Below are positions 2,143 to 63,837 of a DNA stretch of 64,000 nt, in pieces. A program made the translations under genes and the position numbers. Source of the stretch: Escherichia coli (GTDB lineage Bacteria > Pseudomonadota > Gammaproteobacteria > Enterobacterales > Enterobacteriaceae); NCBI RefSeq assembly GCF_003991155.1, contig NZ_CP031294.1; one strand, given 5' to 3'. The notes under the pieces were generated by a model. The model had not been told where the DNA came from. It made no database searches and saw only the letters and a list, made by a program, of their open reading frames with translations. The stretch's first letter is position 1, and every line of letters begins with the position of its first letter.

Positions 2143-5100
2143 TTAGTTACGTTGAGTGTTTGGGTTGAGTGATCCGCCAGGGCGTTTCTCTTGAGCGATA
2201 GTCTCAAGCGCGATTGCTTTCATCCGTTGAGCGGCATTGTTCCATATGCTTTCTGTATCGCCGGATTCAGTTGTGCTACCGTCACTATGGACGTTGATCT
2301 CAATTGATACAGGAGAAAGAACATTTCCTCCTCCACTCATACCATCGGTACTGAGCGTTACAGGGATTGTTCGACCATCAGGCAATGGAACATACGCCTC
2401 ATTCATATCGCCTTCCCCAAACAACGCCAATTGAGGTGAGTTGGCGATACCGCCTTTCTGGTATGCCCGGAGCGGGATCACGCCGTCTTTTCCGAATATG
2501 CCACCATTTGCAAACTTCGGAATTGCAGGAATACCATTCGTGCCATCGGCAGCAGAACTGGTCAGATTGTTGAACCCGGAAGTTGAGCCAGAAGAACCGG
2601 ACATCAATCCATCGAATCCACCACCAGCCCATACTGAAACCAAACCAGATGCAACTGTCGCGCCGAAATTCAACCACTTATTACCAGAGCCGGAAGCATT
2701 AGCTCCAAGCATTGCAAACGCGGCAGACAGAGCGCCGGTAACAGAGCTGAGGTTCTGCATCGAGAAGATGGAGTCCTTCACTGCTTTTGTCTCAGCATCT
2801 TTGGCTTCGGTGCTATTAAATAGCCCTGATACCCAGCTACCAATCGCATTTGTTGCTGTGCCAATTGCGCTGGTGGTCTGCTGTGTCGTTTGCCCCAATC
2901 CAGTTACCGAACTGGACGTCTCCTTCGTGGCTTCTCCTACCGACTTGTCGCCATTAACAGTGTTGCTTATGCGCACACCTTGATTGGCAACTGCGGAAGC
3001 AACCCCGGTGAGCAAATTACCACTCTGTGAACTACCAGCTGCGGTGGTTCCCATCCCCAACATGTTCATTAGAGGCAGCGTGATCTGCGACTTCACGACC
3101 ATATTGGTGATATCTTTCAAAATGGACTGAGATAGGCTGGAGAAGCTCATCTTCCCGTTAATAACGAAATCAGTCAGGACATCAGTTAAGCCACTAAACA
3201 AATCAGTCCAGGTGCTTTCGATCTGCTCTGCCAGATTTTCGTATTCCAGTGCCAACTTCTGCGTCGCAGTCCCCGTCTCTTTAATAAGCGCGGTATTGCC
3301 AGCAGCAATCAGTTGATTGATTTTCTTTGTATAAAGCGCCACAACTTTAGGATCAGACGCCTTATCACGAAGTTCTATCAACGCTTTGAGATTGCGGTTG
3401 TAGGTGTCTTCGAAATCAGCAACTTTCTCTTCGCGAGACGGCGTATAGCCAGCACTAATAATGGAATCCGCCTCCGGTGCCCAAGTGGAGATCATCTGCT
3501 CAACATTGCGGCGATTAAACATCTCACGATATTCAGGTGTCGCATTTTTGAGGTCTTCAAGACGTTTTTTCGCCTTGTCGATCATCTCTTGAGTGATGAA
3601 CTCGTTAGGAACCGCATTAGCCAAATCTGTCAGCGATTTCGTTGTATCGCGAAGAGACTGATCAAACGATACCGTAGCCTTAGAGCTTTCACCCATTTGC
3701 CCCATAAGCTGATCGGCTTTGTCCAGAGCCTTCTGGTATCCGGCTGCCAGTTTCTGTTGCGCTGCCTGTTCCTTCTTGGCCGCACGCTGCGAGGCGTTAG
3801 CTGATCGTTGGGCTGCTTTCTCGGCAGCTGCTGCATCCTGTTCACGAGCTTTAGTAAGTGCGGCAATGGCTGCGGCACGCTCTTCATCGCTCATTTTCTC
3901 CAGAGAGCTGGCACTGGATGCTTTCTGCAAATTAAGCTGCGTCTTGAGTTGTTTAGGCCCAATAATCGGCTTACCTTCGAAGTCCATCATCGGAGTGCCG
4001 TCAGGCAAAGTACGCTGATAAGTCGCAGAATCCATCTGGTTTCGCATATATTGCGCCAACGCCTTCTGAGCAGCTTTATCAGTTGTACCTAACCCAAGAA
4101 CAGTCCCCTGGTTTGACATTACGCCCTTACCAGTTTTGGCCGCGTTATCTCTCTCGAACTCTGCCTGAGTAAGTTCCTGAGCAACGGCTTCCAAATGCTC
4201 CTGATAACCACGAATACTGCCTTGCAGTTTCTGGATTTGCTCGGTATTGCCATCCTTTTTGGCTTTTTCAAGCTGATCATTAAGAGTCGCGATTTGCTTC
4301 TCGGTCGCATTCTTACGAGAAGAAAGTGAATCAACCAGTTTTTGCGCAGGCTCCAGATAGCTTTTGTTTACCGTTTCACGTAACGGTGCCAATAGCTTGT
4401 TCTTTTCGTCATCTGAAAGTGAACCGTCATCATTGATTTTCTGGATCTTATCCAGAGCCTCCTGCCGGGCTTTCACGAATGTTGCCGCGAAAATCTGGTT
4501 TTCCGCTCGAATTTTCTCAATCTGAGATTCGGCAGCCTCTTTAGCCAAACGCTTTGCTACAGCGCCGTCACCAAGAGCTATCGTGCCGGTTATCTTTTGA
4601 TACTCTTCCTGATTTTTTTTCAGGCGTGCTTCGATGTCAGCCTTCGACTCTTTGTGAGTAATAACACCGGCAGAGTTAGATACGTAATTAACACCCTCAC
4701 CAGTTTTTAATGCTCGTTGATCAGCAAGAATCTGCTTTTCGAGCTTTTCTGCGCGGTCGGCCATTTGTGCACGTTTGGCCGCCGTCATCGCCTCTGGTAT
4801 TTTCCTAATCTCGTCAACGACCTTTGAAGTTTCGCTGCGGAGCATGGTCATGTACGTGATTAGGCCAGCAACAGCTACAGTGGCAACTGTAAATGCTGCC
4901 CCTATAGGGTTTGCTGCAATGAACGCCGTTAATCCAGCAAAAGCGCCTTTAAGCCCCGTAATCGCCCCACGGATGGCGAAAATAAGAGAGGGGATCGGAG
5001 CCAGCCCCATACGTGCCGCACGATTGAATCGGGTTACTGCTGTAGCGCCGAGGTTAAATGGAGTCTGTATGGCGGTCGCCATCGTGGCAAAGGTGCTAAC

Positions 5101-15255: not shown

Positions 15256-16512
15256 CTATCGAGAACCACCAAGAATAACACGGTTTTTGACTGGATACCT
15301 ACGATGTACTGGATAGCCCAATGCGTCTGCACTATGCTCAATGCCACCTGTCTTATCCATATCTCGTGTTCCAGGCTTGTAGATGACTTTTTCCAGTGAA
15401 TCAATCAAATGCTTGCACTTCGGATCGATATACAGCCGGATATCTCCAGATGCGGTCATCAGCATTCGGTTAACAGCATTAACACGATCCGCAATTGGCG
15501 GGTGCTTTTTCGAATAATCGACACGTAAGAATCCCTTCTCTTTGAATATGTCGACGTCAGACTCCCCGCGAGCATGTTGGCGATAAGCACCTGCCGGATC
15601 TGGAAATACCGTTATCTGTGATTTCCAGCGCCAGAAGCGTCTCTCAAGCTCATCACAAACCTCTGCCGTGTTAGAGGAAAAGAGCACCAATTCATCAATT
15701 GCCCATAGCTCACCATTTGGCTGAGGTTGCAAAATTACTGAAGACATCGGGTCAATGTTGAAGTCCTGCCCTACCCATATAGGCAACCGAGGGTTGAACT
15801 GAAGCGGTTTTACATGCACGTTACGATCGAACGGGTAGTAAACGCGCCCGGACATGTTCTCAAAGCTCGCCAGGTACTCCTGAGCGAACGATTTCGGGTC
15901 CATATCGTTCTTAGCAGCTTCAATTTCCGCCGTAGGTACAAACGGAGAATCGGCAGTTACAAACTGCCAGCTCTTCCACTGTCCCTTTCTTTGCAGCTCT
16001 ACGTTCTGGCCTATAGTCCACAGTTTGTGAAATTCCGAGAAGCCTTTTGGCGTACCAATGATCAGTGCACCGCCGCGTGTCGATGAAAGAGTAGGTCGTA
16101 ACACCTTGTACCAGGTGTCAGCCTTCATATCCTGAAATTCATCAAGCACTACAAAATGCAACGCTACGCCGCGCAGAGTGTCAGGCTTATCAGCACCTTT
16201 GAGGGCGATCTCCGAACCGTTCTTCAACACGATTGTCATCGTGGTGTCGTTCTTTTTCCTAACCCACTTACGAGGCAGAACTTCCTGTAGATCGTCCCAC
16301 AAAATCTGGCGAGCCATCTGGTAAGTAGGAGCGACATACCAGACTCTTTGCTTTTTTTCCTTTGCCGCCGCACGAATAATAGTGGAGATCGACAACCGGG
16401 ATTTTCCCCAGCGTCGACCAGCACAAACAACTTTAAATCGATGCGGAGACTGGAAGACTTTCATCTGTCCAGAATGCAGTTGCACAAGACTGAGCGAGGA
16501 CGGGATTGCCAT
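15256..16512 (-). CDS. terminase large subunit
   Basis: Walker A CAGRRWGKS, Walker B VVLDEF, C-terminal nuclease-like domain; 418 aa. Confidence 0.9.
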   Translation of the reverse strand: MAIPSSLSLVQLHSGQMKVFQSPHRFKVVCAGRRWGKSRLSISTIIRAAAKEKKQRVWYVAPTYQMARQILWDDLQEVLPRKWVRKKNDTTMTIVLKNGSEIALKGADKPDTLRGVALHFVVLDEFQDMKADTWYKVLRPTLSSTRGGALIIGTPKGFSEFHKLWTIGQNVELQRKGQWKSWQFVTADSPFVPTAEIEAAKNDMDPKSFAQEYLASFENMSGRVYYPFDRNVHVKPLQFNPRLPIWVGQDFNIDPMSSVILQPQPNGELWAIDELVLFSSNTAEVCDELERRFWRWKSQITVFPDPAGAYRQHARGESDVDIFKEKGFLRVDYSKKHPPIADRVNAVNRMLMTASGDIRLYIDPKCKHLIDSLEKVIYKPGTRDMDKTGGIEHSADALGYPVHRRYPVKNRVILGGSR

Positions 16513-17144
16513 TATTCGTCCTCCCCTTCACTTCCATCATCTGTCGCATCAAATTCGCTTAGAGCTTCTTCTTCCAACGTCTCAAGCAATTCGTCATCGA
16601 TGATTTCAGGCTCGTCGTCTTCCTGACGTAATTTCGCCACCTGGGAAGGCGTAAGCTCACCAAATACCAGGTTCGGAATTTCTTCCTCGTCATTTTCCGC
16701 ATGATCCATGCCCAATGCTTTGGACGAAACTTCAAAGCATTTTGCAAGGGTATTACTGGCTCTCTGTAAGCTCTTGAGAGAATCCTCAATCGCCCCTAAA
16801 GGCTTACCCTCACGTTTGGCCGTAGTGACTTCGACCATCACCATCTGCCCCAACGCATACGCCCAGCCGTCATAACGTGTACGACGTTCTTCTATCTTTT
16901 CCGCACGGGCTTTAGCGCGAAGCTCTGCGTCAGATTTAAGAGACTCACGAACCATCTTCCCAACAGAGTCCGCGCCTTTCTCTAATCCTCGCTTTTTGAA
17001 ATGTCTGGAGAGTGTTTCACGACGAATGCCGTACTCTTCCTCCAGCTTTGAGAGTGTATATTCGCCTGACGTCCATTTGGCTTCAGCTTCGGCCCACTCC
17101 GCTGGTGTCAGGCGAGTTTTTACCTCGTCTTTTTCGACCGTCAT
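16512..17144 (-). CDS. terminase small subunit (candidate)
   Basis: 210 aa, N-terminal HTH-like region, acidic C-terminus, 1-bp overlap with TerL start. Confidence 0.6.
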   Translation of the reverse strand: MTVEKDEVKTRLTPAEWAEAEAKWTSGEYTLSKLEEEYGIRRETLSRHFKKRGLEKGADSVGKMVRESLKSDAELRAKARAEKIEERRTRYDGWAYALGQMVMVEVTTAKREGKPLGAIEDSLKSLQRASNTLAKCFEVSSKALGMDHAENDEEEIPNLVFGELTPSQVAKLRQEDDEPEIIDDELLETLEEEALSEFDATDDGSEGEDE

Positions 17145-31731: not shown

Positions 31732-33765
31732 TTACTTAACCTGGTGGCCTGGTTTAGCACCAGCATCCGGGCTTAACAGGAAGATATCTTTCCCGCCGGG
31801 GCCAGCAGCCATCACCATGCCTTCGGAGATACCGAAGCGCATTTTACGCGGAGCCAGGTTAGCCACCATAATGGTGTGACGACCAATCAGTGCCTGTGGG
31901 TCTGGATAAGCAGAACGGATGCCTGAGAAGACATTACGCTTTTCACCACCGAGATCCAGTGTCAGACGCAGCAGTTTGTCAGAACCTTCGACAAACTCCG
32001 CGTTTTCAATCAGCGCCACACGCAGGTCAACTTTGGCGAAGTCGTCAAAGGTGATGGTTTCCTGAATCGGGTCGTCAGCCAGTGGGCCAGTTACCGGTGC
32101 AGCTGTGGCTTTCACTTCTTCTTTGGATGCTTCCACCAGTGCTTCCACCTGTTTCATATCGATACGGTTATACAATGCCTTGAACGGATTCACTTTATGG
32201 CCCAGCAGCGGTTGCTGGATACCATCCCAGGTCAGTTCTGTATTCAGGAATGCTTCTGCACGTTCAGTCAGTTTCGGCAGTACCGGTTTCAAGTACGTCA
32301 TCAGCACGCGGAACAGGTTAATGCCCATAGAGCAAATCGCCTGCAGATCGGCATCGCGTCCTTCCTGCTTCGCCACCACCCACGGAGCCTGTTCATCGAC
32401 ATATCGGTTAGCCAGGTCAGCCAATGCCATGATTTCACGGATAGCTTTACCAAATTCGCGGCTTTCCCATGCTTCGCCAATCACTTCAGCGGCATCAGTA
32501 AAGGTTTTGTACAGTTGCGGGTCAGCCAGTTCGCTTGCCAGCACGCCGTCAAAACGCTTGTTGATAAAGCCTGCATTACGGGAGGCCAGGTTAACCACTT
32601 TGTTCACGATATCGGCATTCACGCGCTGAACGAAATCCTCCAGGTTGAGATCGATATCATCAATGCGCGAAGAGAGTTTCGCAGTGTAGTAGTAACGCAG
32701 GCTGTCGGCGTCAAAATGATTCAGCCAGGTGCTGGCTTTAATAAAGGTGCCGCGAGACTTGGACATCTTCGCGCCGTTCACCGTCACATAGCCGTGAACA
32801 AACAGGTTGGTCGGCTTGCGGAAGTTGCTGCCTTCCAGCATGGCAGGCCAGAACAGGCTGTGGAAGTAAACAATATCTTTACCGATGAAGTGGTACAGCT
32901 CGGCTGTGGAGTCTTTCTTCCAGTATTCATCGAAGCTGGTGGTATCGCCGCGCTTGTCGCACAGATTCTTGAAGGAACCCATGTAGCCAATCGGCGCGTC
33001 CAGCCAGACGTAGAAATATTTGCCCGGCGCGTTCGGAATTTCAAAACCGAAGTAAGGCGCATCGCGGGAGATATCCCACTGTTGCAGGCCGGATTCAAAC
33101 CACTCCTGCATTTTGTTCGCCACCTGCTCCTGCAACGCACCGCTGCGGGTCCATGCCTGCAACATTTCGCTGAAAGAGGGCAGATCAAAGAAGAAGTGTT
33201 CGGAATCACGCATTACCGGGGTAGCGCCAGAAACCACCGATTTCGGCTCGATCAATTCAGTCGGGCTATATGTTGCGCCGCAGACTTCACAGTTATCGCC
33301 GTATTGATCTGGCGCTTTACATTTCGGGCAGGTGCCTTTCACAAAACGATCCGGCAGGAACATGCCTTTTTCCGGGTCGTACAACTGAGAGATAGTGCGG
33401 TTTTTAATAAAACCGTTCTCTTTCAGGCGAGTATAGATAAGCTCAGACAGCTGGCGGTTCTCTTCGCTGTGCGTCGAGTGATAGTTGTCATAGCTGATGT
33501 TAAAGCCTGCGAAATCAGTCTGGTGTTCCTGACTCATTTCGCCAATCATCTGCTCCGGTGTGATACCAAGCTGCTGTGCTTTCAGCATGATCGGCGTACC
33601 GTGGGCATCGTCGGCACAGATGAAATTAACCTCGTGGCCGCGCATTCGCTGGTAACGAACCCAGACATCAGCCTGGATGTGCTCCAGCATATGGCCGAGG
33701 TGGATTGAGCCGTTAGCGTACGGCAGCGCGCACGTCACCAGAATTTTCTTCGCGACTTGGGTCAT
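31732..33765 (-). CDS. metG: methionyl-tRNA synthetase
   Basis: 677-aa product [29 protein letters not shown]... recalled as essentially E. coli MetG (HIGH motif, KMSKS, C-terminal tRNA-binding domain); start at ATG 33763-33765, ORF-track upstream extension rejected. Confidence 0.97.
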
Positions 33766-33922
33766 AGTAGGCATTACTTCTTTGTAGTGAAAAGGGGCTT
33801 GATAGTAACAAAATGGCCTTATGTCTGCCATGTGATAACAGCATTTCTCATAAATGATTAAATGTCGTAGCTGGAGTACACTACAAGGCGACAATTGCGC
33901 AAATTAAAATAAAGGAGACGGG

Positions 33923-35023
33923 ATGAGCGAGTCCAAATCGCCGGATGCCCTGAGAGCAATGGTAGCCGGTACGCTGGCTAATTTTCAGCACCCAACCCTG
34001 AAACACAACCTGACTACGCTTAAAGCGTTACACCATGTTGCGTTGATGGATGACACACTGCATGTCGAACTAATCATGCCTTTCGTGTGGAATAAGCCTT
34101 TTGAAGACCTGAAAGAGCAATGTAGTGGTGATCTGCTCCGTATCACTGGCGCAAAGGCTATTGACTGGAAGCTGTCGTACAACATTGCCACGCTTAAGCG
34201 CGTCAAAAACCAACCAGGCATTAATGGCGTTAAGAACATTATCGCCGTCAGCTCAGGCAAGGGCGGCGTGGGTAAATCCTCCACGGCGGTAAACCTGGCA
34301 CTGGCGTTGGCTGCTGAAGGTGCGAAAGTTGGTATTTTGGATGCCGATATCTATGGTCCATCAATTCCAACCATGCTGGGCGCGGAAAACCAACGTCCAA
34401 CCTCACCTGACGGTACTCACATGGCACCTATCATGTCTCATGGCCTGGCAACCAACTCTATTGGTTATCTGGTCACCGACGACAATGCAATGGTGTGGCG
34501 TGGACCGATGGCCAGCAAGGCGCTGATGCAGATGTTGCAGGAAACTCTATGGCCTGATCTGGACTATCTCGTTCTCGATATGCCGCCGGGCACTGGTGAT
34601 ATTCAGTTGACGCTGGCGCAGAACATTCCTGTAACTGGTGCGGTTGTGGTAACTACGCCGCAAGACATCGCGCTGATCGATGCGAAGAAAGGCATTGTGA
34701 TGTTCGAAAAAGTCGAAGTGCCGGTACTGGGTATCGTCGAAAACATGAGTGTGCATATTTGCAGTAACTGCGGTCATCACGAGCCAATTTTTGGCACCGG
34801 TGGCGCACAGAAACTGGCCGAGAAATACAACACGCAGTTGTTAGGCCAAATGCCACTTCATATCTCTCTTCGTGAAGATCTGGATAACGGAACACCAACC
34901 GTTATTAGTCGTCCAGATAGCGAATTTACGGCTATTTATCGTGACCTCGCAGATCGCGTTGCCGCCCAAATGTATTGGCAAGGTGAAGTAATACCTGGCG
35001 AAATCGCATTCCGCGCAGTGTGA
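33923..35023 (+). CDS. apbC: Fe-S cluster carrier ATPase ApbC/Mrp
   Basis: 366 aa; P-loop SSGKGGVGKSSTAVNLALALA; CxxC motif ICSNCGHHEP; divergent from metG as in Escherichia chromosome. Confidence 0.95.
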   Translation: MSESKSPDALRAMVAGTLANFQHPTLKHNLTTLKALHHVALMDDTLHVELIMPFVWNKPFEDLKEQCSGDLLRITGAKAIDWKLSYNIATLKRVKNQPGINGVKNIIAVSSGKGGVGKSSTAVNLALALAAEGAKVGILDADIYGPSIPTMLGAENQRPTSPDGTHMAPIMSHGLATNSIGYLVTDDNAMVWRGPMASKALMQMLQETLWPDLDYLVLDMPPGTGDIQLTLAQNIPVTGAVVVTTPQDIALIDAKKGIVMFEKVEVPVLGIVENMSVHICSNCGHHEPIFGTGGAQKLAEKYNTQLLGQMPLHISLREDLDNGTPTVISRPDSEFTAIYRDLADRVAAQMYWQGEVIPGEIAFRAV

Positions 35024-39091: not shown

Positions 39092-42000
39092 ATGACTCAT
39101 CAGACACACACCATTGCTGAATCCAATAACTTTATCGTTCTTGATAAGTACATCAAAGCCGAGCAAACAGGCGACAGCTACCAGAGCGAATCGGACCTGG
39201 AACGTGAACTGATTCAGGATCTGCGGAATCAGGGCTATGAATTTATTTCCGTAAAATCTCAGTCGGCGATGCTGGCCAACGTTCGGGAACAGCTTCAGAG
39301 CCTCAATGGTGTGATGTTTAATGACAGCGAGTGGCGGCGCTTCACGGAGCAGTATCTGGACAACCCCAGCGATGGTATTCTGGATAAAACCCGTAAAATC
39401 CATATCGACTATATCTGCGACTTTATTTTTGACGACGGGCGACTTGAGAACATCTATTTGATAGATAAAAAGAATCTCATGCGCAATAAGGTGCAGATTA
39501 TCCAGCAGTTTGAACAGACGGGTTCTCATGCTAACCGTTATGACGTCACGATCCTGGTTAATGGTTTACCGCTGGTGCAAATCGAACTAAAAAAACGCGG
39601 GGTGGCGATTCGTGAGGCTTTCAACCAGATACATCGTTACAGTAAAGAGAGTTTTAACAGCGAAAATTCCCTGTTTAAGTATCTGCAACTGTTTGTCATT
39701 TCTAACGGCACCGATACCCGTTATTTTGCCAACACGACAAAGCGCGATAAAAACAGTTTTGACTTCACCATGAATTGGGCGAAATCAGACAACACGCTGA
39801 TTAAAGACCTCAAAGACTTTACCGCTACCTTTTTCCAGAAACATACTCTGCTGAATGTTCTGGTGAACTACAGCGTTTTTGACAGTAGTCAGACGCTACT
39901 GGTGATGCGACCGTACCAGATTGCCGCCACCGAGCGCATTCTGTGGAAAATTAAGAGTTCCTTTACAGCGAAGAACTGGTCAAAACCGGAAAGCGGTGGG
40001 TATATCTGGCATACTACCGGTTCTGGTAAAACCCTCACCAGCTTTAAAGCCGCGCGTCTGGCAACAGAGCTGGACTTTATTGATAAAGTCTTCTTTGTGG
40101 TCGACAGGAAAGACCTCGATTACCAGACCATGAAGGAATATCAGCGTTTTTCGCCAGACAGCGTCAACGGCTCGGAAAATACCGCAGGCCTTAAACGAAA
40201 TCTGGATAAGGACGATAACAAAATTATCGTCACTACTATTCAGAAACTCAATAACCTGATGAAAGCAGAAAGCGACCTGCCTGTATATAATCAGCAAGTG
40301 GTGTTTATATTTGATGAATGCCACCGCAGCCAGTTTGGAGAAGCGCAGAAAAACCTGAAGAAGAAATTCAAACGCTATTATCAGTTTGGTTTTACCGGCA
40401 CCCCTATTTTCCCGGAAAACGCTTTAGGCTCAGAAACGACCGCCAGCGTATTTGGTCGTGAATTGCATTCGTATGTAATTACCGATGCGATTCGTGATGA
40501 AAAAGTGCTCAAATTCAAGGTGGACTACAACGATGTGCGGCCACAGTTTAAATCTTTAGAGACAGAAACCGACGAGAAAAAACTGAGTGCGGCTGAAAAT
40601 CAGCAGGCATTTCTTCATCCCATGCGTATACAGGAAATTACGCAATATATTCTGAATAACTTCCGCCAGAAGACCCACCGTACTTTCCCAGGTTCCAAAG
40701 GCTTTAATGCCATGCTGGCAGTGAGTAGCGTGGATGCCGCGAAAGCCTATTACGCGACGTTTAAACGGTTACAAGAGGAAGCAGCTAATAAATCGGCTAC
40801 CTATAAACCGCTGCGTGTTGCAACAATCTTCTCCTTTGCCGCCAATGAAGAACAAAATGCCATTGGTGAAATTTCCGATGAAACTTTTGATACCAGCGCA
40901 ATGGACAGCAGTGCTAAAGAGTTTCTTGACGCTGCAATTCGTGAGTATAACAGCTATTTTAAAACTAACTTCAGCACCGACAGTAACGGTTTTCAGAACT
41001 ACTATCGTGATTTAGCCCAACGGGTTAAAAATCAGGATATCGATCTGTTAATTGTCGTTGGGATGTTTTTAACCGGCTTCGACGCTCCAACATTGAACAC
41101 GCTATTCGTCGATAAAAACTTGCGTTTTCACGGCCTGATGCAGGCATTCTCCCGTACCAACCGCATTTATGACGCTACTAAAACCTTCGGTAACATCGTC
41201 ACTTTTCGGGATCTGGAACGCTCAACCATTGATGCCATAACGCTGTTTGGTGATAAAAATACTAAAAATGTGGTGTTAGAAAAGAGTTATGCTGAGTATA
41301 TGGAAGGCTTTACAGATGCTGCCACTGGTGAAGCTAAACGCGGCTTTATGGCAGTAGTTTCAGAACTGGAACAACGGTTCCCTGACCCTGCCAGTATTGA
41401 AAGTGAAAAACAGAAGAAAGACTTCGTAAAACTGTTTGGTGAATACCTGCGTGCCGAGAACATCCTGCAAAACTATGATGAATTTGCCACGCTGAAAGCC
41501 CTGCAACAAATCGATCTTAGCGATCCTGTTGCGGTAGAAAAATTCAAAGCAGAACATTATGTGGATGATGAAAAGTTCGCTGAATTGCAAACAATTCGTC
41601 TCCCTGCTGAACGCAAGATTCAGGATTATCGTTCTGCCTATAACGATATTCGCGACTGGCAGCGCCGTGAGAAAGAAGCTGAGAAAAAAGAGAAATCAAC
41701 CACTGACTGGGATGACGTAGTTTTTGAGGTCGATTTGCTGAAGTCTCAGGAAATAAACCTGGATTATATCCTTGGACTGATTTTCGAACACAACAGACAA
41801 AATAAAGGCAAGGGCGAAATGATCGAAGAGGTCAAACGCTTAATTCGTTCAAGCCTGGGGAACCGGGCGAAAGAGGGCCTGGTGGTCGATTTTATTCAGC
41901 AAACGAACCTGGATGATTTACCAGACAAAGCCAGTATCATTGAGGCATTCTTTACGTTTGCTCAACGCGAACAGCAACGTGAAGCAGAAGCATTGATAAA

Positions 42001-46037: not shown

Positions 46038-46682
46038 TTACCACTTGTTATAAACAAAACCAATATCTTTCTTGTGAGGCATATCTGCTGCTGAAAAAGC
46101 TGCGATCTTCGCGAGTCGATCACATATTTCATTTTCACGATGCCCGGCGTGACCTTTAACCCACTTCCAGCGAACATTATGTCGACTTGCGGCCTCATCC
46201 AGACGTTTCCACAGATCAACATTCTTTACCGGTTTTTTATCAGAAGTCATCCATCCATTACGTTTCCACCATTTCATCCACTGTGTCATGCCGTTTTTCA
46301 GATACTGGCTATCAGAGTACAAAATAACGTTGCATGGATATTTCAAACGCTCCAGCCCGATAAGTGCGCCCATCATCTCCATGCGGTTATTGGTGGTGCT
46401 ATGAAAACCATCTGAGAACTCGCGTTCCTCACCACGATACTGGAGAACGATACCGTAACCGCCCGGGCCACCCGGATTTTTAAGGCAAGAGCCATCACTA
46501 AAGATTTTCACGGTTTTGAGCTGGGGATTGAACTCTACGACAGGCGTTGTGGGATTGGTGCGGGGAGAATTTTTGTTTTTGGCTTTTTTGCGAGTTTTTG
46601 CTTGCGATCGGGCTGGTGTCTTCGTCGTCATATAAACTCCTGAATCAAGCGCCGCGCCGATTTTTTCCTCGCGCGTGCGCAC
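46038..46682 (-). CDS. rnhA: ribonuclease H (RNase HI family)
   Basis: C-terminal region [12 protein letters not shown]...[16 protein letters not shown]...[26 protein letters not shown]...[16 protein letters not shown] matches RNase HI; basic N-terminal extension. Confidence 0.85.
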
Positions 46683-47214
46683 ACGCGTGCGTGTTAATAA
46701 TTATTAAAATAAACAAATTACTTCCCAGAACAGGTTTTTTATAAACCTGAACTGAACGAACGAAGTGAGTGAAGTTCACCTCGAACGAAGTGAGAGGTTG
46801 TCTTTTCAGGTAATACTCTCCCAGGGAGGTGAGTATAAAATTCCTCACCAACCTGGTCGTTTCATAACCTGAAAAGCTATGGTCTAAGTCTACTGCCAGC
46901 TTAGACTTGGGAAGTTATGGATGACAGCACCCCAGAACCGAGATCTTCCCACACTTTATGAAGGGGAGTACTGGATTCAACCTCTCGAAACACCCCAGAC
47001 TCGACAATCATAAAGTGACCCTTGTCTCTGCTCACTTTGGTTCCCCCTTCCCCGACACCTAAACGGCACCGGTTCTACGCTGGTAGTGAGCTTTTTTAAA
47101 CCTGACGCCAGTGACGCTTACCCCCACCCATCAGGTCGAGTCTCCAGTCTACGACTGGAAACTATCAGATCTTAGCACTTACAATTCACTTTATGAATAG
47201 TTTGTACTTATCTA

Positions 47215-47469
47215 TCATTTCGATTGATTATTTTTTCGACCATGTAGTTGAACATTCAAGGCAAACACCTCGTTGATCAACTCACCTAAAAGCTGTTCAA
47301 CAAGTTCGCGATGCTCCCCAAGATGCAAGCACTTAATTGCCCATTCGTACAAGTTGAAAGCCTGCTCACGATCTTTCATCATTTCACGAGCCTGGGCCAG
47401 AAAATCGCTCTCTACGAGCGCAACGACATTAGTCGGATATGACATGTTGGTTTCCTTAAAGTGGTTCAT
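47215..47469 (-). CDS. small hypothetical protein
   Basis: 84-aa ORF downstream of hairpin element copy 2. Confidence 0.4.
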   Translation of the reverse strand: MNHFKETNMSYPTNVVALVESDFLAQAREMMKDREQAFNLYEWAIKCLHLGEHRELVEQLLGELINEVFALNVQLHGRKNNQSK

Positions 47470-47550
47470 AAAATCGATTTTAAAGCGTCTGGGAAGGGGT
47501 TCTAGTGGATTCTGTAGTGGTGTTCAGGTCTGGGAGTCTCTGATATAAAA

Positions 47551-47610
47551 CAGCCTGCTTCCGTATATTAATAATTAATATGTAGTTATTTATATATACA
47601 GAAGCAGGCT
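47551..47610. promoter_or_regulatory. hairpin-flanked AT-rich intergenic element (copy 2)
   Basis: agcctgcttccgtatat ... atatatacagaagcaggct; near-identical to 17257-17316. Confidence 0.5.
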
Positions 47611-47631
47611 AATTACAGACGCCAGAACAAA

Positions 47632-63257: not shown

Positions 63258-63354
63258 AATCGTTTTTTCAGTAGTTATTGGCCGATGCTACGATAACTCA
63301 TTAGGCATACCTTAATCTGCATTTGCCTGTTTTACTTATCCCAGTTATCCACTG

Positions 63355-63430
63355 GATAGATCCAAATAAGAGATCCCAAGTAAGATCAAATAGAAGATCC
63401 AAAGAGATCCCCGATCGCCTCTAGCCGTTG
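63355..63430. promoter_or_regulatory. DnaA-box-like site plus cluster of six GATC sites
   Basis: ttatccact followed by agatcc/agatccc/agatca/agatcc/agatcccc/cgatcg within ~65 bp. Confidence 0.6.
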
Positions 63431-63454
63431 CGGTTACTGGTCTGAAAGGGTGTT

Positions 63455-63568
63455 GCCATCCACTATGGAGAGCAAAGAAACCTCTGTAGAGAGCTGAATA
63501 ACCGCTATGAAGAGTAAAACAACCACTCTGGAGAGCTGTATATATCCACTGTAGAGAGTAGAGCACAT
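63455..63568. repeat. iteron array 1 (five ~22-bp direct repeats, core CCACTNTAGAGAG)
   Basis: atccactatggagag, cctctgtagagag, ccgctatgaagag, ccactctggagag, ccactgtagagag at ~22-bp spacing. Confidence 0.8.
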
Positions 63569-63716
63569 TGTCTTTTATGGATAACTTAATGACTTAATTC
63601 TTCATTAACATACTGATATACATAGATATATTTTAAACTCTACTCTTAGTCATGATTCTTATGTCCTTAAATATCCACAGAAGAGTAGAGTTACCTGTTC
63701 TTGAAATCCTCTGATT

Positions 63717-63725
63717 TTTATCCAC
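63717..63725. promoter_or_regulatory. consensus DnaA box TTATCCACA
   Basis: Exact 9-mer read in sequence, preceding GATC-containing repeats and iteron array 2. Confidence 0.6.
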
Positions 63726-63837
63726 AGGCCCGATCCAGTAATTCAGATCACAAAGAGAACCAAAGAGACCCATAAAGACCCAATAAGATCCCCGCCCACC
63801 TCAAACCGTTGTGCCATCTGCCTTCAGACATGATCGA

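Follow-up and report, generated by a model that had tools for sequence, protein, structure and literature searches.

Results

Genes and features at the locus

The window analysed here, a stretch of 64,000 nucleotides from Escherichia coli contig NZ_CP031294.1, is by megablast an SSU5/pHCM2-type phage-plasmid, and the element in question occupies the gap of about 580 bp (46632-47214) between the coding sequence (CDS) of an RNase HI gene and an open reading frame (ORF) of 84 amino acids. As argued below, this gap very probably holds a discrete gene for a structured non-coding RNA (ncRNA) of about 460 nt, a core component of phage-plasmids of this type. All genes around the locus lie on the minus strand, so that the original prediction, which had placed a structured region upstream of RNase H, is correct in gene orientation only. 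In a megablast of the region the closest matches are the Escherichia phages CMS-2020a, PhiR41_1 and Cyrano (98-99% identity); Salmonella phage SSU5 and Klebsiella phage-plasmids match at 85-91%. The RNase HI gene (46038-46631, minus strand, ATG at 46631-46629) encodes 197 amino acids with a clear Pfam assignment (RNase_H, E = 1.2e-45) and a Lys-rich N-terminal extension of about 40 residues, and is preceded by a Shine-Dalgarno motif, GGAG, at 46637-46640. The 84-aa ORF, the neighbour upstream of the RNA (47215-47469, minus strand), has no Pfam hit, and no Pfam domain was matched in the flanking small proteins.

The gap, for which the original prediction had listed no ORF, is devoid of conserved ORFs. 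The longest reaches 44 amino acids, is annotated as CYRAN_81 in Cyrano and is frameshifted in three lineages; no ORF of at least 25 amino acids is common to all lineages, and indels shift the frames. An 11-aa AUG ORF within the hairpin P2 (see below) is, by reading of the sequence, apparently lost in the Klebsiella lineage. Existing annotation runs over the element in two records: SSU5_090 of RefSeq SSU5 (L002, 7415-8179) places the RNase H start some 58 codons too far upstream, so that the CDS spans the GC tract and AT spacer and enters the 3′ domain of the RNA, and CYRAN_81 (L082, 3269-3403) is a 44-aa "hypothetical protein" called in the centre of the RNA. Both the over-extension and CYRAN_81 are annotation artefacts that mask the RNA. 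No RNA is annotated under the element in any record inspected, the RefSeq E. coli carriers having nothing annotated there, and neither an RNA at this locus nor the 13-mer discussed below is described in Rfam 15 or the searchable literature.

Anatomy of the transcription unit

All features in this section are given in the minus-strand sense. Directly after the stop of the 84-aa ORF and just upstream of the -35 hexamer stands a box, (A/G)TAAGTAC(W)(W)AC (47200-47211), which is conserved in all lineages; it is a degenerate copy of a dispersed 12-bp palindrome, GTAAGTACTTAC, and in the SSU5 lineage it takes the form of the perfect palindrome GGTAAGTACTTACC. The putative sigma-70-type promoter that follows (47169-47197) comprises a -35 hexamer TTCATA (47192-47197), a 17-nt spacer with a TG at 47176-47177, and a -10 hexamer TAAGAT (47169-47174). 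All lineages keep TTNANN, a spacing of exactly 17 nt and TANNAT, and most keep TGn, while the spacer sequence is unrelated between lineages. The retention of hexamers and spacing across a diverging spacer argues for a real sigma-70 promoter. A simple promoter scanner did not list this site, which we assign from its conservation and from the step in the RNA-seq data.

The RNA body of about 460 nt (46703-47162) has a predicted 5′ end at G47162 or A47163 and a predicted 3′ end in the U-rich tract 46703-46719. Its 5′ half is G-rich. The invariant G47162, 7 nt past the -10 hexamer, opens P1, a 5′-terminal hairpin (helix 1, 47140-47162) whose sequence varies while its fold is kept, with double changes in 6 of 9 pairs. 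The long hairpin P2 (helix 2, 47099-47137) has a G-rich 5′ arm, GAUGGGUGGGGG, and a GNNA-type apical loop; 3 of its 15 pairs carry compensatory changes and 100% of its cells are paired. An A-rich linker leads from P2 to a central multi-branched domain (helices 3-15, 46792-47091), in which helices 3, 8 and 13 (the last at 46882-46906) show compensatory changes and helices 11, 14 (46802-46815/46863-46876) and 15 (46821-46833/46844-46856) never or almost never vary. The three inverted repeats reported originally fall in this domain and are all present: cttttcaggt (46802-46811) pairs with acctgaaaag (46867-46876) within a 13-nt repeat that is 92% complementary, ggtgag (46828-46833) with ctcacc (46844-46849), and aagtcta (46886-46892) with tagactt (46902-46908). 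The 3′ domain is a three-way junction (helices 16-18, 46720-46791) bearing two invariant 13-mers, CUCACUUCGUUCG, at 46782-46794 and 46757-46769. These account for the duplicated sequence of the original prediction, CGAACGAAGTGAG, whose copies are 100% identical and recur with a 25-nt period. A hairpin at 46725-46755 covaries (pair 433:444 alternates between UA and GC in 8 sequences), and the closing helix of the junction abuts the U-tract in most lineages, those of SSU5 included, like a branched terminator.

The conserved block continues beyond the predicted RNA. The U-rich tail passes into an AT-rich spacer (46695-46719) whose length and sequence vary between lineages while its composition is kept, the GC content falling to 24% at 46700-46749; a terminator tail, a promoter of the next gene and an unwinding element are all candidate roles for it. 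Adjacent to it is a GC-rich tract of perfectly alternating purines and pyrimidines over 25 nt (46670-46694; ACACGCACGCGTGTGCGCACGCGCG), in which the GC palindrome reported earlier, cgcgcgtgcgcacacgcgtgcg (46670-46691), was readily located. The tract occurs in every lineage at lengths of 13-25 nt, with shuffling of CA and CG units, and is potentially Z-DNA-forming. A run of 5-10 A across lineages (46661-46666) forms the RNase H-proximal edge of the block and is followed by GC-rich sequence and then by the ribosome site and ATG of RNase H.

The fold is maintained on the minus strand

The minus strand folds with a minimum free energy of -212.4 kcal/mol, as compared with -166.5 ± 6.5 kcal/mol for dinucleotide shuffles (z = -7.06; 0 of 100 shuffles as good), and the plus strand with -173.7 kcal/mol (z = -6.5, likewise against dinucleotide shuffles). 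From an alignment of 31 distinct sequences RNAalifold derives a consensus of 137 pairs in 18 helices. Changes on both sides of a pair are found in 14 of the 137, spread over helices 1, 2, 3, 8, 13 and 18. The fraction of cells that are paired is 99.1%, and drops to 35-48.5% when the partners are slid by 1-3 columns; the covariation score of 0.110 (0.065 in shuffles) was reached by none of 500 shuffles.

The alignment and its reverse complement were then folded identically for comparison of the strands. The consensus energy is -155.5 kcal/mol for the minus and -120.7 kcal/mol for the plus strand. Paired positions that alternate between Watson-Crick and G-U number 26 on the minus and 11 on the plus strand, and those that alternate between Watson-Crick and A-C number 5 and 12, respectively. 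Transitions at paired sites are thus tolerated when they yield G-U in the minus-sense RNA, which marks the element as an RNA with the same sense as the genes. Selection acts on the fold of the minus strand.

Transcription in the plasmid state

Published RNA-seq data for LF82/Cyrano (PMC9928086, Table 1 and S1 Table) cover a segment inside the element under the name CYRAN_81, which is 12-fold elevated in the LF82 lysogen data. The values, log2(FPKM + 5) with FPKM standing for fragments per kilobase per million, are available for five conditions with two replicates each. In overnight LB, CYRAN_81 stands at 6.82/6.92, its neighbour CYRAN_80 at 3.36/3.13 and the RNase H gene, CYRAN_82, at 2.59/3.44. 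In the same order, the values are 9.34/9.02, 4.62/4.20 and 3.87/3.83 after 1 h of culture; 6.94/6.89, 4.10/4.07 and 4.42/4.27 after 6 h of culture; 8.97/8.23, 5.81/5.14 and 4.70/4.01 after 1 h in macrophages; and 10.35/10.30, 5.22/5.01 and 5.02/4.78 after 6 h in macrophages (PMC9928086). CYRAN_81 accordingly ranges from 6.8 to 10.35 in 10 of 10 samples, CYRAN_80 from 3.1 to 5.8 and RNase H from 2.6 to 5.0. In every condition of the plasmid state the segment is expressed 12-45 times above either neighbour, and for this reason the element is best described as a discrete transcription unit. Expression of the upstream 84-aa ORF is at background when the RNA is high, and the profile of CYRAN_81 across conditions resembles those of the putative repressor and the integrase.

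Comparative alignment and RNA-seq had both been named as checks of the structured RNA candidate, which would have been abandoned had there been neither transcription nor conservation of the stems. Both are found, and the compensatory changes, the strand-specific G-U pattern, the conserved promoter and the discrete, abundant transcript together support the structured-RNA half of the original prediction well; the observation itself is confirmed and is something beyond a chance pattern.

By far the most abundant Cyrano transcript is another "hypothetical protein", CYRAN_43 (Cyrano 40268-40822, next to the integrase and outside the window), whose level in the LF82 lysogen exceeds that of the prophage background 723-fold (PMC9928086, Table 1); either a further RNA or a strongly expressed moron could lie behind it.

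Distribution, conservation and independence from RNase H

The element was found in 12 phage records, in 231 of 5426 complete E. coli genomes (about 4%) and in 686 PLSDB plasmids from Klebsiella, Escherichia, Enterobacter, Salmonella (including pHCM2 of S. Typhi CT18), Citrobacter, Cronobacter and others; 66 IMG/VR loci with the element were fetched via the RNase H gene. Among the PLSDB carriers 676 of 686 are typed as non-mobilizable, and those among the matches listed are all at least 60 kb in size, their typing, where read, being IncFIB or rep_cluster_488. The element is single-copy in the phage-plasmid. Apart from the element carriers, no host-genome similarity was detected in the 5426 E. 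coli genomes, and an origin from E. coli chromosomal sequence was rejected for that reason. RNase H relatives at 39-58% identity come without the element, as do the related RNase H genes of L063, L064 and L071-L081, and a contig scan for distant homologues with an invariant 20-mer returned only Kluyvera and a truncated Buttiauxella copy.

Identity of the core (about 46716-47140) between lineages is 88.5-95.5%, and that of the adjoining RNase H CDS 73-77% (46-56% at third codon positions, 87-92% at first and second positions). The non-coding core thus changes more slowly than the replacement sites of RNase H. Its identity reflects either very strong purifying selection or exchange between lineages, or both.

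Natural rearrangements separate the RNA from its neighbour. In the K. pneumoniae plasmids L290 and L291 an insertion cuts RNase H after codon 8 and leaves the RNA, its promoter and the downstream tracts intact, and in a Kluyvera contig (L293), an Enterobacter hormaechei plasmid (L296, betT) and an E. coli plasmid (L295, IS4321) RNase H has been replaced with the RNA intact. In the last three, as in the 5′-truncated Buttiauxella remnant (L292), homology ends a few bases 3′ of the A-run, and all four have in common a different continuation of about 35 nt after it. In the Klebsiella lineages DNA homology stops at the promoter box, on the 5′ side of the RNA. Because homology ends at both edges, the conserved unit from about 47211 to 46661 forms a module of its own. 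The phage RNase H gene is a neighbour of the RNA and not a required partner, and the RNA does not depend on it.

It is worth adding that a cargo-insertion hot spot lies just downstream of the RNA block (about 1040-3000 in L290/L291, 174-2171 in L296, 349-1353 in L295), where RNase H is replaced or truncated by two to four hypothetical genes, betT or IS4321.

Comparison with known systems

An Rfam scan, also among the checks named originally, matched no family. Across the whole window none of the 4227 models of Rfam 15, which include C4, RNAI, ROOL, GOLLD, HEARO, 6S, tmRNA, RNase P, group I and II introns and riboswitches, reached its gathering score, and at E ≤ 10 the segment 46400-47700 yielded only spurious matches of miRNA and snoRNA type, far below threshold. 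ARAGORN found no tRNA or tmRNA gene in the window.

ColE1 RNA II is a constitutive, folded plasmid RNA of about 500 nt that ends near a purine or A-run by GC-rich sequence and has a link to RNase H. The RNA described here is similar in size, constitutive expression and fold, in its A-run beside a GC-rich end, its variable 5′ hairpin and its link to RNase H. It differs in having neither sequence homology, nor an Rfam RNAI match, nor an RNA I promoter, and in residing on a 110-kb RepA/IncFIB host; on the plus strand, where RNA I would need a promoter opposite the 5′ 110 nt or so of the pre-primer, the sole promoter-like site (47156-47185) is directed away from the RNA body and falls within the non-conserved spacer. 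P1 c4, P4 CI and N15 CB are likewise ncRNAs of phage-plasmids made in lysogeny from an operon-leader position, with P4 using premature termination. Those immunity RNAs are, however, only about 70-80 nt long, as against about 460 nt here, and their targets are complementary sites repeated within the same transcript, and the present phage-plasmid, unlike C4-type systems, has a protein repressor (putative, a CYRAN_45 homologue). A C4/CI-type immunity RNA was rejected, since there is no C4 match at E ≤ 10 and no complementary target repeat. With ROOL, GOLLD and HEARO the RNA shares a length of hundreds of nucleotides, many helices, strong conservation and carriage by phages or mobile elements; it differs from them in the lack of a covariance-model match, in its Enterobacteriaceae phage-plasmid hosts, and in its conserved sigma-70 promoter and lysogenic expression. 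The T4 origins oriF (uvsY) and oriG (34) resemble the locus in that a promoter is followed by an easily unwound AT-rich segment amid a T4-like set of replication and recombination genes. T4 origin transcripts are short, and no elaborate fold is known to be needed. Their promoters are MotA-dependent middle promoters, inactive in a lysogen, which sets them apart from the element.

PeSLs are elements of about 100 bp with a GGGG/CCCC stem-loop, an AT-rich tract and a near-consensus early promoter, followed by the Shine-Dalgarno motif and ATG of the next ORF (PMC2839356, PMC4122927). The present locus is similarly a conserved intergenic block with a sigma-70 promoter and a stem-loop, flanked by gene replacements. 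It was nevertheless rejected as a PeSL cassette: the block spans about 550 bp, its stems differ, and its promoter drives a 460-nt ncRNA that is itself the product, whereas PeSLs drive the next protein gene.

Several other candidates were discarded as well. A hok-like type I toxin mRNA would require a conserved small ORF, and there is none. A type III antitoxin RNA, which would be a tandem array of near-identical repeats of about 36 nt ahead of a toxin endoribonuclease gene, does not fit two 13-nt repeats in otherwise different 25-nt units, next to a downstream gene that is a canonical and dispensable RNase HI. An origin of the iteron/DnaA type is opposed by the presence of two 13-mers only, with no more in 112 kb, where at least three iterons would be expected, by DnaA boxes at chance frequency at the element, and by the lack of an initiator gene and of a change in skew. 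Not counted among the discarded is an Hfq-type small RNA, which would end in a GC-rich hairpin with a run of 6 or more U right behind it: the scanner called no such terminator, and a branched helix followed by a U-rich tract is present in most lineages and weak in Klebsiella. Antisense regulation of the phage-plasmid was dismissed on finding 13 antisense matches of at least 11 nt elsewhere in the 112 kb, compared with 13-29 in shuffles. Loop complementarity to 16S, 23S and 5S rRNA and to tRNA-Glu is no better than in shuffles, so that rRNA or tRNA targeting was also set aside, and a likeness of CGAAC...GAAGUGA to loop C of 5S rRNA was judged too weak.

The 13-mer recurs outside the element

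The invariant 13-mer, CTCACTTCGTTCG as the complement of CGAACGAAGTGAG, is not confined to the SSU5 family. An IMG/VR pattern scan for the duplicated 13-mer returned this family and unrelated AT-rich phage contigs; leaving the family aside, the metagenome scan gives 117 loci from soil, freshwater and marine sources (the loci considered outside the window are L084, L085, L099, L102, L108-L110, L173-L289, L297 and L298). Direct flanking by at least 4 complementary bp is seen in 45 of 187 distinct instances, as compared with 2.3 in a re-pairing control. The 5-nt 5′ arms take 94 different forms, and the 13-mer is therefore read as a hairpin loop on a freely varying stem. Elsewhere it occurs in tandem arrays with periods of 22-29 nt, including in bacterial intergenic regions, and in the array variants CTCGCTTCGCTCG and CTCACTTTGTTCG an A-to-G change at position 4 accompanies a T-to-C change at position 10. 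The 13-mer loci are mostly intergenic and no neighbouring protein family is common to them; in about 71% of cases the flanking gene reads into the 13-mer in the purine-loop orientation.

In named T4-like phages the 13-mer sits in inverted repeats of about 45 bp around an AT-rich core of 90-140 bp. The cassette of Enterobacter phage EC-W2 lies between gene 24 and a probable uvsY, which we take to be the position of T4 oriF as described by Kreuzer and Alberts. In Yersinia phage JC221 the cassette is upstream of gene 3, and in an Alteromonas podovirus the 13-mer is found in the terminal repeat. These cassettes were rejected as PeSL stem-loops, the stems of which are GGGG/CCCC (PMC2839356, PMC4122927).

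The complement CGAACGAAGTGAG can be read as a C-G pair, tandem G.A/A.G, an A-T pair and a C-G pair closing a GAA triloop, and the natural variant CGAGCGAAGCGAG contains GCGAAGC, the "extraordinarily stable mini-hairpin" reported at the complementary-strand origin of G4, at ssiA of RSF1010 and at the promoters of the N4 virion RNA polymerase (PMC13037366). The plus-strand 13-mer is like these sites in forming a GAA-triloop mini-hairpin, and unlike them in that selection at the RNA level acts here on the opposite, pyrimidine strand. The 13-mer may function as DNA and on the strand opposite that of the RNA. Rfam matched nothing at the 13-mer loci beyond one sub-threshold group II intron fragment (D1-D4, E = 8e-6; L241, 114-246), about 80 nt from a 13-mer hairpin pair on a soil contig; it is probably a coincidental neighbour.

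A dispersed palindrome at the promoter

The promoter box belongs to a dispersed set. The degenerate box pattern has 17 matches in the window (1.2 expected) and 14 in the rest of the plasmid (1.3 expected), and GTAAGTACTTAC at ≤2 mismatches has 30 copies in the phage-plasmid where about 5 are expected. Twenty-four of them are intergenic, typically 4-67 nt before ORF starts, with one each in the control region of the putative repressor, before the Dam methylase gene and after RNase H. Copies are located at 1741, 8242, 13737, 15244, 20535, 28059, 46026, 47200, 48241, 53075, 57791 and 62475 in the window, and at 4228, 9014, 18253, 21521, 24851, 33630, 38273 and 42531 in L171. GTAAGTACTTAC looks like a candidate control box, operator or promoter element, of a regulon spanning the genome, and the C1 operators scattered over P1 follow a comparable logic. 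Since its promoter box is a copy of GTAAGTACTTAC, the RNA gene would be wired like the other transcription units of the element.

Discussion

Proposed function of the RNA

Based on the above data, we propose an independent gene for a structured RNA whose product acts in trans, an explanation to which, taken as a whole, we assign a probability of roughly 50%. Host RNA polymerase would start at the conserved sigma-70-type promoter (-10 hexamer at 47169-47174) and, from about 47162 on, read leftwards along the minus strand. Its product would fold at once into a 5′ protective hairpin, a G-rich hairpin, a multi-branched core and a 3′ junction displaying the two identical 13-mers, and most transcripts would end at, or be trimmed to, the U-rich tract around 46700, before RNase H. 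Such a stop would let the RNA accumulate in the plasmid (lysogenic) state while its neighbours are silent. The near-invariance of unpaired segments and helices alike, the protective 5′ hairpin and an accumulation far above the neighbouring mRNAs suggest multiple contacts with conserved partners. From these three features we tentatively infer the mode of action, namely that of a folded scaffold or decoy whose invariant unpaired segments hold on to a conserved factor of host or phage, in the service of life in the plasmid state. The RNA is, in our view, neither a DNA site nor merely a leader of RNase H.

Several observations weigh against this proposal. About two-thirds of the helices are invariant and hence neither confirmed nor refuted by covariation, and recent exchange of the segment between lineages could lie partly behind the high identity of the core. 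The S1 Table values come without strand, read ends or a coverage profile. The ends of the RNA are predicted, the exact positions being deduced: the scanner found no canonical intrinsic terminator, and the 3′ end consists of the branched closing helix with a U-tract, weak in the Klebsiella lineage. Conservation does not stop at the putative 3′ end but takes in the AT-rich spacer, the alternating GC tract and the A-run, which a purely trans-acting RNA leaves unexplained. Finally, an origin-type function would better suit both the position within a cluster of replication genes and the recurrence of the 13-mer module in T4-like phages, where it stands in intergenic cassettes rich in AT.

Alternative explanations

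These last points lead to the idea that the RNA is the pre-primer of an R-loop-type origin, in the manner of ColE1 RNA II or of T4 oriF and oriG, which we regard as unlikely. The transcript would run into the AT-rich spacer and GC tract, form an RNA-DNA hybrid there, be cut by phage or host RNase H at the A-run (46661-46666) and prime the leading strand, probably in the service of lytic replication by the element's own replisome. This would account for the travelling of spacer, GC tract and A-run with the RNA, and for their order: a block of about 500 nt from promoter to A-run, beyond which homology ends within a few bases in the rearranged lineages, with structured RNA, an AT-rich tract of 24% GC that keeps its composition while its sequence varies, a GC-rich tract and the A-run in succession. 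The promoter lies 496-501 nt upstream of the A-run, close to the roughly 500-555 nt to the transition site of ColE1, with which the A-run as such can be equated by analogy only; size, constitutive promoter and a GG-A(n)-CG motif also recall ColE1 RNA II and its origin, a likeness drawn post hoc. The G-rich 5′ half of the RNA agrees with such a role, as does the setting next to RNase HI, inside a cluster of replication and nucleotide-metabolism genes and on an element with a T4-like replication and recombination set (UvsY, a gp32-like single-stranded DNA-binding protein, RecA, SbcCD-like proteins, helicase, primase and Pol III alpha). It is chiefly the recurrence of the 13-mer that keeps this reading alive: the pair flanks AT-rich spacers in T4-like phages, with the EC-W2 copy directly upstream of the probable uvsY, and on the plus strand the 13-mers fold into mini-hairpins with a GAA triloop, like those of the G4, ssiA and N4 initiation sites. 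In the R-loop of the RNA itself, though, those mini-hairpins would lie in the hybrid and not on the displaced strand. A lytic origin would not be expected to have a promoter that is on in the plasmid state, at levels like those of the repressor, and the plasmid already has RepA (IncFIB) and DnaA boxes about 17 kb away. The element shows no DnaA-box cluster, iteron array or initiator gene, no conserved antisense promoter like that of RNA I, no inflection of GC skew and no sequence homology to ColE1-type origins. Its carriers among the matches listed are all large phage-plasmids (at least 60 kb), with no small replicon, and the phage RNase H is dispensable for its carriage. A bolder version, in which large structured RNAs of enterobacterial phage-plasmids that act through a hairpin-displayed 13-mer (CUCACUUCGUUCG / CGAACGAAGUGAG) form a new class, with this RNA as its first member and as the pre-primer or organiser of a second, transcription-dependent origin, we likewise consider improbable. 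If it were true, the 13-mer would mark a widely distributed, undescribed nucleic-acid signal, for example for replication initiation or priming, common to T4-like phages and more than 100 unrelated metagenomic loci.

Somewhat less likely still is a cis-acting leader, a transcriptional gate of the RNase H operon that terminates in the plasmid state and is read through after induction, comparable to the leader-termination immunity of satellite phage P4 or to a riboswitch-like attenuator. The element does lie immediately upstream of RNase H in the same orientation, and the RNA level drops 12-45-fold across the 3′ end. Moreover, CUUCCCA (46908-46914) could pair either with UGGGAAG (46945-46951) or with a downstream UGGGAAG(UAA) by the U-tract, which would permit a choice between terminator and antiterminator, as far as can be deduced from segments that are invariant. 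A leader would hardly be expected to persist, however, with its promoter, where the downstream operon has been destroyed or replaced by unrelated cargo, and 460 nt of near-invariant sequence far exceed the needs of a terminator. There is, besides, neither a C4/CI-type RNA nor a set of repeated complementary target sites, and reading of the sequence revealed no anti-Shine-Dalgarno pairing to the ribosome site of RNase H, no systematic search having been made. Highly improbable, in our estimate, is a site that works in cis solely as DNA, for packaging, for recombination or as a PeSL-like shuffling linker, its transcript being incidental. The locus is an island of high identity with breakpoints on both sides, it contains many inverted repeats and the alternating purine-pyrimidine tract, and conserved promoter/terminator shuffling cassettes are documented in T4-type phages (PMC2839356, PMC4122927); for a block between recombination breakpoints, a passive role as a shuffling boundary is possible. 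Yet substitutions keep the pairing on one strand through G-U (26 versus 5), which is not expected of duplex sites, and compensatory changes occur in six helices. The packaging and recombination sites offered as options in the original prediction found no support: selection acts on one RNA strand and lacks duplex symmetry; the terminase genes, which were assigned from gene sizes matching the Cyrano annotation, are at 15256-17144, about 30 kb distant, and the pac site is likely to be equally far off; the integrase is located outside the window; and no integrase or recombinase gene adjoins the element. The published PeSLs, with their GGGG...CCCC stems and length of about 100 bp next to an early promoter, are a different element.

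Significance

As an independent RNA gene, the element would be a new RNA family among the structured ncRNAs of mobile elements, a generally familiar kind; what is unusual is how large and how conserved it is, and that DNA tracts are attached to it. SSU5/pHCM2-type phage-plasmids are common in clinical Enterobacteriaceae, with hundreds of Klebsiella, Enterobacter and Salmonella plasmids, and bear resistance and other cargo; their most conserved non-coding segment is an abundant RNA that annotation pipelines have missed. Large, strongly conserved structured RNAs are rare in hosts this well studied, and LF82/Cyrano, Salmonella SSU5 and E. coli K-12 lysogens of PhiR41_1 offer tractable genetics. 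The RNA provides a handle on the double life of these phage-plasmids, with plasmid-state physiology, control of induction and replication priming as candidate roles, and at the same time a sequence marker for the family and a new entry for RNA databases.

Other features of the window

In a plasmid record 100% identical to the window over the element, repA (IncFIB) is at position 1, about 17 kb from the element; elsewhere that record is incompletely collinear with the window. Perfect and near-perfect DnaA boxes cluster at the window end beside repA (58068 and 63345-63726), presumably the IncFIB plasmid origin. Host-type metG (methionyl-tRNA synthetase) and apbC appear as cargo at 31732-35023, an assignment made by size match to a near-identical plasmid, relative to which the window has an indel of about 1.6 kb there. 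Between the Dam methylase gene and the 84-aa ORF lies an AT-rich perfect hairpin or palindrome (47547-47615; cagcctgcttc...gaagcaggct around an AT-rich loop), which is the source of the spurious Rfam miRNA matches and may be a bidirectional terminator.

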